Shown: positions 24,468 to 36,261 of the stretch, in pieces
Numbering within the stretch: position 1 is the stretch's first letter
Layout: every line of letters starts with the position of its first letter
Origin: Escherichia coli
GTDB taxonomy: Bacteria; Pseudomonadota; Gammaproteobacteria; Enterobacterales; Enterobacteriaceae
Direction: 5' to 3' (one strand)
Assembly: GCF_003334255.1 (NCBI RefSeq)
Contig: NZ_QOWU01000011.1
Length of the DNA: 64,000 nt
The notes under the pieces: model-generated
What the model was told of the DNA's origin: nothing
Databases searched by the model: none
The model's input: the letters and a program-made list of their open reading frames with translations, nothing else
Made by a program: the position numbers and the translations under genes

Positions 24468-26294
24468 TTATTCCCGTGAACTAAACAACGCCGCCAGACC
24501 ACTGCGCCGCTCAGTACGAGTGGCGATTGCCGCACTTAATATGCGCTCATCGGCATACAGCGACAGACGGCGACGCGCGCGGGTCACCGCGGTATAAACC
24601 AGCTCTCGCGTTACTACCGGCGTGCGTTGGCTCGGCAAAATCAACGCCGCATGGTCGAACTCCGATCCCTGCGATTTATGTACCGTCATCGCCCACGTAG
24701 TTTCGTGCTCTGGCAAGCGACTCGGTTGCACAGACTTAATATTGCCGTCCGGCATCGCAAACCAGACGCGCGTCCCCTGCCCGCGATCCAGCGCAATACC
24801 GATATCGCCATTAAACAACCCAAGCGCGCTGTCATTACGGGCAATCATCACCGGTCGACCTTCGTACCAACGAGAGTGCGGATGACGATGAATTTTGCGC
24901 TTCTGTTGCATAAACTGCTCAATTCGCTCATTCAGTCCAGCCACGCCAAACGGCCCTTCCCGCAGGGCGCACAAAAGCTGGTACTCATTGAACGCCTGAA
25001 TGATTAAATCCGGCTCGGCACGCGCTTGCAGCAGATCCAGATAACGTCCGTAACCCGCAAGAGCTTCCTCAAGCATCGCAATATAATCTTCGCCGCTCTG
25101 TAAAAGCCGTTTTTCGATATCAGTAAAATCCTGCTGAAAAACGGTTTTCACTGCCGTTTTATCACCACGGTTGATCGCCGCAGCTAACTGACCAATGCCA
25201 GAATCGCTGCCGAAACGATAGCTTTTTTGCAGCAGGCAGAGACTGTCGCGCAAAGATGCCGCTTCTGTGCCGGTTCCTGCCGGAACGTGAGTCCCCGTCA
25301 GGCGGCTTAGCTGCCTGGCACGCTCGGCGGTAAAGCCCGCGTTGGCATAAGCGCAGATATCGCCCAGCACAGCCCCAGCCTCAACCGAGGCCAGTTGATC
25401 ACGATCGCCGAGAAAGATCACTCGCGCATGATCGGGCAAGGCGTCGATCAGTCTCGACATCATAGGCAGATCGATCATTGACGCTTCATCTACCACCAGC
25501 ACATCAAGATGCAGCGGGTTACCGGCATGATGACGTAAACGCTGGCTACCCGGCTGCGCGCCCAGCAATCGGTGCAAAGTGCTGGCATCTTCCGGAATGC
25601 GTTTCTTTTGTTCATCGGTCAGCGGTAACTGTCGCAAAGCCTTGCCGAGAGATTCGGTTAAGCGCGCGGCAGCTTTACCCGTTGGTGCAGCCAGACGGAT
25701 ACGGCAGCGTTCGCCGTCGGCCATTTGAATTAACGCTGCCAGCAACTTCGCTACGGTGGTCGTTTTACCGGTGCCAGGGCCGCCGGAAATCACCGAGATC
25801 CGCCGCGTCAGCGCCACTGCCGCCGCAACTTTTTGCCAGTTAATTTCATCGCTTACTGGAAAAAGTTTGTCCAGGGTTTGCGCCAGTAGAGCTTCATCAA
25901 CCTCAATGGCATGATTCACTTCGTTGAAAAAGCGTGCCACTGTGCGCTCGTTACACCACATGCGATTCAAATAAAGACGATCGCCACAGAGGATCATCGG
26001 CGTGGGTTCATCTCCCCTGCTGACCGCTTGAGAAGCCAGCAAGCATTCTTCCCAATTTTGTAGCTCACCGATTTCACTGACACAGGTCGCCAACAGCGGA
26101 TGCGACGCCTCGTTATTTTCCAGTCGTGAAAGCGGCAAACAAACGTGTCCCTCTCCGGCATCATGACTTAACAGTGCCGCCGCGAGGGTGACGGCAGGAT
26201 GTTCATCTCCCGCCACGGTCAGGGCAAATTGCACATCCAGCGGGCGTAGCTGTTTGTGCTCCACAGCTTCCAGTAATTGCTTTTGCAATTTCAT
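24468..26294 (-). CDS. recD: Exodeoxyribonuclease V alpha subunit (5'-3' helicase)
   Basis: 608-aa ORF with Walker A GGPGTGKT; recognised as RecD. Confidence 0.95.
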
Positions 26295-35800: not shown

Positions 35801-36261
35801 AAATGTCCTGTTTCCCACTGTGCCAGCCAGTCCGGACGATAGACCAGATACTGGTCAAACAGGTCCGCCGCTTTTGAGGAAAGCTGGAACAGTTTTCGCT
35901 TGTCGCTATCGTCAGTCAGATAATGCCGCAACAGGGTAAAGTCTTCGCGCTCCAGCAATTGCGGCAGCAGAGTCATCAGTTTCCAGCTCATGCTCTGTTT
36001 GTTAAAGGCGCTCTCTTTGGGGATTTCCGGTAACACCCGGACGAACATATCCCAGATAAAGCTCGCTGGCAGCGGAAAATCAATGTTTGCCGCAATACCA
36101 AACTTTTGCGACAGGGTCATTTGCAGCCACTGTGCCATACCGGTACTTTGCACCAGAATCATCTCTGGTTCGAAAGGATCGTCCAGCCGTTCGCGTTCGA
36201 CAATAAACTCCATCAACGCTTCCAGCACGTCCAGACGATTGGAATGGTAGACCCTTAACAT
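32893..36261 (-). CDS. recC: Exodeoxyribonuclease V gamma subunit (Chi recognition)
   Basis: 1122-aa ORF recognised as RecC. Confidence 0.95.
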   Translation of the reverse strand: MLRVYHSNRLDVLEALMEFIVERERLDDPFEPEMILVQSTGMAQWLQMTLSQKFGIAANIDFPLPASFIWDMFVRVLPEIPKESAFNKQSMSWKLMTLLPQLLEREDFTLLRHYLTDDSDKRKLFQLSSKAADLFDQYLVYRPDWLAQWETGHLVEGLGEAQAWQAPLWKALVEYTHQLGQPRWHRANLYQRFIETLESATTCPPGLPSRVFICGISALPPVYLQALQALGKHIEIHLLFTNPCRYYWGDIKDPAYLAKLLTRQRRHSFEDRELPLFRDSENAGQLFNSDGEQDVGNPLLASWGKLGRDYIYLLSDLESSQELDAFVDVTPDNLLHNIQSDILELENRAVAGVNIEEFSRSDNKRPLDPLDSSITFHVCHSPQREVEVLHDRLLAMLEEDPTLTPRDIIVMVADIDSYSPFIQAVFGSAPADRYLPYAISDRRARQSHPVLEAFISLLSLPDSRFVSEDVLALLDVPVLAARFDITEEGLRYLRQWVNESGIRWGIDDDNVRELELPATGQHTWRFGLTRMLLGYAMESAQGEWQSVLPYDESSGLIAELVGHLASLLMQLNIWRRGLAQERPLEEWLPVCRDMLNAFFLPDAETEAAMTLVEQQWQAIIAEGLGAQYGDAVPLSLLRDELAQRLDQERISQRFLAGPVNICTLMPMRSIPFKVVCLLGMNDGVYPRQLAPLGFDLMSQKPKRGDRSRRDDDRYLFLEALISAQQKLYISYIGRSIQDNSERFPSVLVQELIDYIGQSHYLPGDEALNCDESEARVKAYLTCLHTRMPFDPQNYQPGERQSYAREWLPAASQAGKAHSEFVQPLPFTLPETVPLETLQRFWAHPVRAFFQMRLQVNFRTEDSEIPDTEPFILEGLSRYQINQQLLNALVEQDDAERLFRRFRAAGDLPYGAFGEIFWETQCQEMQQLADRVIACRQPGQSMEIDLACNGVQITGWLPQVQPDGLLRWRPSLLSVAQGMQLWLEHLVYCASGGNGESRLFLRKDGEWRFPPLAAEQALHYLSQLIEGYREGMSAPLLVLPESGGAWLKTCYDAQNDAMLDDDSTLQKARTKFLQAYEGNMMVRGEGDDIWYQRLWRQLTPETMEAIVEQSQRFLLPLFRFNQS

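Follow-up and report, generated by a model that had tools for sequence, protein, structure and literature searches.

Conserved stop/start overlaps and leading-strand Chi sites at an ordinary recC / ptrA–recB–recD locus of Escherichia coli

Gene content of the locus

The window (the whole stretch of DNA that was analysed, 64 kb) carries four neighbouring genes on its minus strand between positions 24468 and 36261. These are recD (24468..26294; exodeoxyribonuclease V alpha subunit, 608 amino acids), recB (26294..29836; beta subunit, 1180 amino acids from the annotated ATG), ptrA (29829..32717; pitrilysin, also called protease III, 962 amino acids) and recC (32893..36261; gamma subunit, 1122 amino acids). 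Each assignment draws on the open reading frame, the RefSeq annotation and NCBIfam, and all agree with the identities proposed in an earlier, sequence-only reading of this DNA. The proteins exceed the cut-offs of their NCBIfam equivalog models: RecD scores 1140 bits against NF008127 (cut-off 671), RecB 2335 bits against NF008128 (cut-off 1697), PtrA 1856 bits against NF011681 (cut-off 765) and RecC 2125 bits against NF008289 (cut-off 1470). Catalytic motifs are present in RecD (Walker A GGPGTGKT and Walker B) and in RecB (Walker A AGTGKT and motif Ia ELLVVTFT). The longest open reading frame of recB reaches 3 codons beyond the annotated ATG, to a GTG at 29845.

Several E. coli chromosomes, among them those of strain G1/2 and its relatives, match the block at 100% identity, and a genome search found the block in all 5426 of the 5426 complete E. 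coli genomes. The window departs from full colinearity with strain G1/2 by indels in csdA and at the tRNA-Met array; RefSeq annotation was transferred from a strain with 100% identity by anchoring each gene separately. In MG1655, recD–recB–ptrA–recC (b2819–b2822; 2,950,635–2,962,428, complement) has the same genes, order, strand, lengths and junction overlaps as the window, with strain-level nucleotide differences only. The order recC–ptrA–recB–recD, with ptrA inserted between recC and recB, recurs in all 77 complete loci from related Enterobacteriaceae; this comparison drew on 80 species of the family, and counts from it are not phylogenetically independent.

These results confirm that the block is the ordinary textbook E. 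coli recC / ptrA–recB–recD locus and that it is chromosomal. Its overlapping junctions and uniform Chi orientation are real, and both are already well described; the locus itself, its two-operon layout, the placement of the recB ribosome-binding site within ptrA and the bias of Chi to the leading strand are either textbook knowledge or recently published. The outcome is mainly confirmation, and the locus proves to contain nothing out of the ordinary.

Operon structure and the recC–ptrA spacer

Between recC and ptrA lies a 175-nt spacer (32718..32892, minus strand), which contains the promoter and 5′ untranslated region (UTR) of ptrA–recB–recD (PMC12342828). A spacer is retained throughout the related species, and in nearly all of them it measures 110–186 nt. 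The 36-nt stretch of the ptrA 5′ UTR to which Hfq binds, as quoted in PMC12342828, is matched exactly at 32732..32767 (minus strand); Kalita et al. (2025) deleted this stretch experimentally (PMC12342828). The same work describes a polycistronic ptrA–recB–recD operon with ptrA as its first gene, and provides experimental documentation of the two-operon structure, of the recB ribosome-binding site within ptrA and of the Hfq site (PMC12342828). The order of elements is recC, then the spacer with the promoter and Hfq-bound 5′ UTR, then the second operon.

A consensus promoter scan of positions 24300–36700 returned 2 promoter-like matches, fewer than in shuffled sequences and none of them in the recC–ptrA spacer, and at neither gene junction did this simple scan return a consensus sigma-70 site. 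Terminator-like matches over 24300–36700 were at background level only. Because the promoter and terminator scan was uninformative, we rely on published work for the operon structure.

Overlapping stop and start codons

The sequence-only reading had claimed that recD and recB overlap by 1 nt, and recB and ptrA by 8 nt; reading both junctions from the sequence bears this out. The recB stop and the recD start share one base in TAATG (26292..26296, minus strand), where the junction runs ...GCG-TAATG-AAA and the TAA stop of recB meets the ATG of recD. At the other junction, ...AAGAATGAGTGATGTC, a single 8-nt overlap, ATGAGTGA (29829..29836, minus strand), contains both the ATG of recB and the TGA stop of ptrA. 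The recD start is preceded by a strong Shine–Dalgarno sequence, GGAGGAGG, which is located inside recB. The ribosome-binding region of recB is inside ptrA, and the Shine–Dalgarno sequence upstream of recB is weak.

Both junctions keep their stop/start overlap across the 80 species despite its shifting form, which is a modest addition to what has been described. The recB/recD overlap is kept in 79 of 79 related species (71 with 4 nt, as ATGA or GTGA, and 8 with 1 nt) and the ptrA/recB overlap in 79 of 80 (45 with 4 nt, 31 with 8 nt and 3 with 20 nt). Species that retain the overlaps span RecB identities of 68–97%, and the form of the overlap has changed several times.

This conservation, together with the overlaps themselves, suggests translational coupling of ptrA with recB and of recB with recD. 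Coupling has been proposed for ptrA/recB (PMC12342828), and a literature search for direct evidence of recB–recD coupling returned only that Hfq paper, with its ptrA/recB proposal. In known coupled gene pairs, as described in 1982 work in the form in which PMC12342828 cites it, the downstream start overlaps the upstream stop and the upstream gene contains the ribosome-binding site; both junctions here are alike in these respects. Because the stop of ptrA or recB overlaps the next start, a finishing ribosome ends on or beside the downstream start codon. Such a ribosome could re-initiate at that start, or could unmask the start codon, which would tie the synthesis of RecB and RecD, very low as it is, to one Hfq-controlled initiation event upstream.

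Alternatively, the overlaps might reflect neutral genome compaction and stop-codon drift, with recB and recD using their own ribosome-binding sites and no functional coupling between the genes. Overlapping junctions are indeed ordinary: of the 37 same-strand neighbour pairs in the window, 9 overlap (8 nt in four cases), and the lplT/aas junction has the identical ATGAGTGA. The strong Shine–Dalgarno sequence belongs to recD itself, which could therefore initiate independently. Neither start is sequestered by special RNA structure; 110-nt folds at the two junctions are no more stable than shuffled sequences (z = 0.23 and 0.46), and so we claim no structure-based mechanism of coupling. Against neutral drift, the overlap persists at both junctions although its exact form varies, and the adjacent recC–ptrA junction never overlaps in related species. 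The weak Shine–Dalgarno sequence upstream of recB also favours reliance on upstream ribosomes, and the published proposal of coupling for ptrA/recB likewise speaks against neutrality. On balance we regard neutral overlap as rather unlikely.

Chi sites are co-oriented on the leading strand

An exhaustive scan of both strands of the window found 8 exact copies of the Chi octamer, GCTGGTGG; every one is on the minus strand, and the plus strand has 0. The four positions named in the sequence-only reading (29653, 32504, 35742 and 47026) are all correct, and the scan adds four more; the co-orientation asserted there holds throughout the window, and in relation to replication direction every site falls on the leading strand (see below).

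Four Chi sites lie one in each gene of the recBCD block. The site in recD (25493..25500) is read as GTG-CTG-GTG-GTA (VLVV, residues 265–268) within the Walker B motif, and that in recB (29653..29660) as CTG-CTG-GTG-GTC (LLVV, residues 59–62) within helicase motif Ia, ELLVVTFT. In ptrA (32504..32511) the codons are GCG-CTG-GTG-GTG (ALVV, residues 69–72), and in recC (35742..35749) they are GCG-CTG-GTG-GAA (ALVE, residues 171–174). A further site lies in ppdA (37599..37606; WLVV, residues 135–138), at the same position as in MG1655, and two are in lplT (47026..47033, SLVG, residues 221–224; 47368..47375, TLVG, residues 107–110). The sole intergenic Chi (50249..50256, minus strand like the others) is 31 nt upstream of the OmrB small RNA gene. 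In each of the seven genic sites, which all lie in minus-strand genes, Chi is spelled by a Leu-Val codon pair on the sense strand, xxG-CTG-GTG-Gxx. Over the 16-kb stretch that was compared, MG1655 has the same five Chi sites at identical relative positions.

The minus strand of the window is the leading strand, as judged by GC skew, KOPS and the position in MG1655. Of 31 overlapping 4-kb windows, 29 have negative GC skew on the plus strand, and the cumulative value declines to −1.40 over the 64 kb. The E. coli chromosome has another polar octamer, KOPS (GGGNAGGG), which occurs 5 times on the minus strand and 0 times on the plus strand of the window, and has the same polarity in related species (159:15). 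Its strand polarity in the window is that of Chi; its reader protein is FtsK and its function is different, and it serves here as an independent leading-strand marker only. The MG1655 counterpart is at about 2.95 Mb on the complement strand, between ter and oriC, which on the E. coli map are at about 1.6 Mb and about 3.92 Mb, respectively. The locus belongs to the left (counter-clockwise) replichore, where it occupies the leading strand.

RecBCD reads Chi on the 3′-ended strand, arriving from the 3′ side of the octamer. Because all Chi sites in the window are on the minus strand, this reading rule makes them active only for an enzyme travelling toward oriC. Active RecBCD would enter at lower window coordinates, on the terminus side, and move toward oriC; such entry would match the geometry of a one-ended break from a collapsed replication fork.

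Recognition of GCTGGTGG by RecBCD, with nuclease attenuation and RecA loading, is established in E. coli, and Chi is strongly biased to the leading strand there (PMC8022716, PMC10025158). The window matches this genome-wide polarity in the exact octamer, in leading-strand orientation and in the location of sites in core genes. Chi occurs about every 5 kb in E. coli, with an observed/expected ratio of about 2.3 (PMC3784561), and is enriched in the core genome. Density in the window is lower (0.125 per kb) than the genome mean (about 0.2 per kb), and the 100% orientation differs from the strong genome-wide bias by no more than sampling error.

Sources of the Chi orientation bias

Much of this one-sidedness of Chi is a consequence of how the genes are oriented and which codons they use. 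Dinucleotide shuffles of the window contain 2.2 ± 1.5 Chi sites in total and 0 of 100 reach 8. A stricter null, synonymous-codon shuffling, keeps the proteins, codon usage and gene orientation; it yields an expected total of 5.6 against the observed 8 (P = 0.17), and an expected asymmetry of 3.9:1.65 against the observed 8:0 (P = 0.0055). Gene orientation and codon usage alone thus predict about 70% of Chi on the minus strand. Given the total P value, and given that Chi ranks 8th of 47,801 octamers by skew, behind seven that are equally or more skewed, we rejected the notion that the Chi excess in the window is significant by itself.

The bias might be purely a by-product of gene orientation, favoured Leu and Val codons and a general lean of G-rich oligomers to the leading strand, without selection linked to RecBCD. 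Much in the window is compatible with this, including the shared sense frame of the seven genic sites in minus-strand genes, the larger share of coding sequence in such genes (35.2 kb, against 21.2 kb in plus-strand genes), the result of synonymous shuffling for both total count and minus-strand share, and the lean to the minus strand of octamers with 5 or more G (63%) and of octamers of the same composition (61%); a study from 2000, in the form in which it is cited in PMC3269016, takes the same side. However, the observed 8:0 is above the codon-aware expectation, and one-mismatch Chi variants reach only 55% on the minus strand. The loci of the 80 species contain 270 sense Chi where synonymous shuffling yields 85 ± 9, a 3.2-fold excess in a sample that is not phylogenetically independent, whereas antisense Chi are at the shuffled expectation. 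In the same peptide context, xLV[GAVDE], eligible peptides are spelled as Chi 2.5 times more often in leading-strand open reading frames (29.5%) than in lagging-strand ones (11.8%). Chi codons are also retained above matched codons: at the four Chi sites compared with elsewhere, retention is 0.87 versus 0.64 for CTG, 0.73 versus 0.56 for GTG and 0.78 versus 0.56 for GCG. Codon usage as the sole cause was rejected on the contrast between leading- and lagging-strand reading frames and on the cross-species excess, and we consider a pure by-product improbable.

Chance in so small a sample is a scarcely credible source of the 8:0 orientation: although there are eight sites only, and seven other octamers in the window are skewed to the minus strand at least as strongly as Chi, the two-sided P value under 50:50 is 0.008, Chi was named beforehand and not selected among all octamers, its polarity recurs in the 80 species (326 co-oriented versus 58 opposite) and the literature reports it genome-wide (PMC8022716, PMC10025158).

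A single explanation, namely a core-genome recC / ptrA–recB–recD locus with two-operon expression, polar Chi sites and coding context, is in our judgement very probably correct. The genic Chi codon pairs would cost nothing in protein terms and use preferred codons, and the bias may be understood as gene orientation plus codon usage plus an additional enrichment specific to the leading strand. That gene orientation and codon usage explain the regional bias only partly is a further modest addition to published work.

Chi sites within the recBCD genes of related species

Inside the recBCD block of related species, co-oriented Chi outnumber opposite ones by 260:19. From these sequence comparisons we tentatively entertain the possibility, to which we give somewhat less than even weight, that individual Chi sites within the RecBCD genes are kept by selection on synonymous positions across Enterobacteriaceae. 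If so, purifying selection would act on single Chi sites, beyond the genome-wide count, and core genes would carry Chi preferentially, without altering the protein, in the conserved Leu-Val-Val strands of their P-loop and helicase motifs.

Chi is present at the ptrA position in 27 of 77 related species and at the recC position in 26 of 76. The clearest candidates for selection at the level of a site are the position in the RecD Walker B motif, with Chi in 57 of 76 related species, and that in RecB motif Ia, with Chi in 47 of 78.

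Identity and layout of the locus

The genes recD (24468–26294), recB (26294–29836), ptrA (29829–32717) and recC (32893–36261) occupy the minus strand, as annotated in an identical strain and in K-12 MG1655; the ORF list agrees for recD, ptrA and recC and starts recB three codons earlier, at a GTG. All four proteins far exceed the NCBIfam equivalog cut-offs (exodeoxyribonuclease V alpha, beta and gamma; pitrilysin), and the block that a sequence-only reading had placed at 24468–36261 is thus borne out by annotation, ORFs and protein models alike. The stretch 24000–37000 aligns to E. 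coli chromosomes at identities of up to 100%. All 5,426 complete E. coli genomes in the collection contain it, and in 5,423 a single segment covers 80% or more of its length. The MG1655 counterpart of the window lies at ~2.93–2.99 Mb in unchanged orientation.

The genes form two operons, recC alone and ptrA-recB-recD, and translational coupling has been proposed for ptrA and recB (PMC12342828). Within the 175-nt recC–ptrA spacer we found a verbatim copy (32732–32767) of the 36-nt Hfq-binding region whose deletion increases RecB translation (PMC12342828). Upstream, just 12 nt separate ppdC from the start of recC (36262–38010, minus strand), and the ppdA-ppdB-ygdB-ppdC chain overlaps by 10, 4 and 16 nt; with this spacing, read-through transcription into recC looks possible. 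All of the elements analysed here have already been described: the locus, the two operons, the Hfq site (PMC12342828), the abundance of Chi and its leading-strand bias. Our analysis confirms the earlier observation as an instance of what is known.

Chi sites lie on the leading strand

An exhaustive scan of both strands for Chi (GCTGGTGG), the octamer recognized by RecBCD, returned eight sites, every one of them on the minus strand. They lie in recD (25493), recB (29653), ptrA (32504), recC (35742), ppdA (37599) and lplT (47026 and 47368), and the sole intergenic site (50249–50256) is 31 nt upstream of the OmrB sRNA gene (50137–50218, minus), in its promoter region; OmrA follows at 49935–50022 (minus). 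The sequence-only reading had listed four co-oriented sites, all of them correct, and the scan adds four more in the same orientation. Neither strand has a Chi site in 1–25492, which contains the fuc, sda and csd genes, many of them lagging-strand genes, or in 50257–64000, the last 14 kb (yqeF–yqeK, GC 0.37–0.43). With eight sites in 64 kb, the window is less dense in Chi than the genome average; published abundance is about one per 5 kb, with an observed/expected ratio of ~2.3 (PMC3784561).

Three independent markers identify the minus strand as the leading strand. Plus-strand GC skew is negative in 29 of 31 overlapping 4-kb windows, the cumulative skew falling to −1.40. KOPS (GGGNAGGG), the polar octamer read by FtsK, occurs five times on the minus strand (starts 15917, 24775, 24954, 45373 and 59240, two of them inside recD) and never on the plus strand, with the same polarity as Chi. 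The E. coli terminus is at ~1.6 Mb and oriC at ~3.92 Mb; the block maps to 2.95 Mb on the complement strand of MG1655, between the two, so the minus strand is leading. RecBCD recognizes Chi on the 3′-ended strand and approaches the octamer from its 3′ side; an enzyme entering from the terminus side and travelling towards oriC therefore meets these sites in their active orientation. Such entry and travel correspond to the geometry of a collapsed fork. The leading-strand bias is the published polarity of Chi (PMC8022716, PMC10025158).

Codon usage explains part of the polarity

All seven genic Chi sites read in the sense direction of minus-strand genes and share one frame, xxG-CTG-GTG-Gxx (Leu-Val). 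Shuffling synonymous codons within each gene, which preserves proteins, codon usage and gene orientation, predicts 3.9 sites on the minus strand and 1.65 on the plus strand. Against this null the total of eight is unremarkable (P = 0.17), and the 8:0 asymmetry exceeds it (P = 0.0055). The minus-strand share in the window is 63% for G-rich octamers and 55% for one-mismatch Chi variants, and seven other octamers have a minus-over-plus excess at least as great as that of Chi. Of the xLV[GAVDE] peptides encoded in the window, 7 of 35 in leading-strand genes use the Chi spelling versus 0 of 18 in lagging-strand genes (one-sided Fisher P = 0.044).

The recBCD loci of 80 other Enterobacteriaceae species, which share ancestry, give more power than the window alone: relative to the recB strand, 326 Chi sites are co-oriented versus 58 opposite (260:19 inside the block). 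KOPS counts are 159:15, and every one of the 80 loci has positive GC skew on the recB strand. Among sense sites of the four genes, 267 of 270 use the Leu-Val frame. Synonymous shuffling predicts 85 ± 9 sense sites versus 270 observed, and 15 antisense sites versus 19 observed. In each of the four genes, the most frequent Chi position among relatives is that of E. coli: recD residue 265 (57 of 76 species), recB residue 59 (47 of 78), ptrA residue 69 (27 of 77) and recC residue 171 (26 of 76). The recD site falls within the Walker B strand and that of recB within helicase motif Ia (ELLVVTFT), and their peptide context is accordingly unchanging. In the 56 species with RecB identity of at most 80%, retention is higher for the Chi-forming codons than for identical codons elsewhere at conserved positions (CTG, 0.87 versus 0.64; GTG, 0.73 versus 0.56; GCG, 0.78 versus 0.56). 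Across the 80 loci, the Chi spelling is used for 29.5% of eligible peptides in leading-strand ORFs and for 11.8% of those in lagging-strand ORFs (odds ratio 3.1). The polarity of Chi thus has two components: one follows incidentally from gene orientation and codon choice, and the other is a leading-strand-specific enrichment. This mixed origin matches the view, as outlined in PMC3269016, that the skew has several causes.

Overlapping junctions are conserved

The overlaps reported from sequence alone, 1 nt for recD/recB and 8 nt for recB/ptrA, are both exact. The minus-strand sequence across the recB/recD junction is GGAGGAGGCG-TAATG-AAA, in which the stop codon of recB (TAA) and the ATG of recD have one base in common, with a strong Shine–Dalgarno sequence 5–12 nt upstream. 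At the ptrA/recB junction (AAAAGA-ATGAGTGA-TGTC), a single 8-nt string holds the recB ATG and the ptrA TGA, and the Shine–Dalgarno sequence is weak. Folds examined at the two junctions revealed no unusual RNA structure. Within the window these overlaps are not special: 9 of 37 same-strand neighbouring gene pairs overlap, four of them by 8 nt, namely ptrA/recB, lplT/aas (47688–47695, the identical string ATGAGTGA), rlmM/ygdD (15289–15296) and yqeI/yqeJ (63137–63144).

Among the 80 species (RecB identity 68–97%), all 77 complete loci keep the order recC-ptrA-recB-recD. Overlap of recB and recD occurs in 79 of 79 species (ATGA or GTGA in 71, one base in 8), and that of ptrA and recB in 79 of 80 (4 nt in 45, 8 nt in 31, 20 nt in 3); recC and ptrA never overlap and are always separated by a spacer, of 110–186 nt with one exception. 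That overlap is kept while its form turns over argues for constraint. From these comparisons we infer that the most economical constraint would be termination–reinitiation coupling, in line with the interpretation offered by the sequence-only reading; the literature searched contained no direct test of coupling at these junctions. Alternatively, recD could initiate independently from its own Shine–Dalgarno sequence. Under termination–reinitiation coupling, the synthesis of both RecB and RecD would depend on Hfq-controlled initiation at ptrA.

The only species without the ptrA/recB overlap is Intestinirhabdus alba (locus L021, 9587–10001), in which a GC-rich insertion of ~410 nt parts the genes and replaces the last ptrA codons; the recB start retains the ancestral ATGAATGA string. 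In locus L074 (E. coli strain E69, CP089930.1, a whole-chromosome contig), the RecB match ends at residue 666, where the locus sequence ends, which could reflect an interrupted recB or the limit of the stored sequence.

Other features of the window

Rfam matches place the GcvB sRNA at 16749–16954 (+) and the short sRNA ES036 (CssrF) at 19970–20012 (−), between tcdA and mltA. A single initiator-type tRNA-Met gene lies at 21440–21516 (+), between mltA and amiC, where strain G1/2, whose recBCD block is 100% identical to that of the window, has three tandem copies at 110-bp spacing, against two in other E. coli strains; the array here is contracted by 220 bp. The csdA gene (17390–18595, +) is 12 nt shorter than in G1/2; the two strains, near-identical otherwise, differ here by an in-frame indel.
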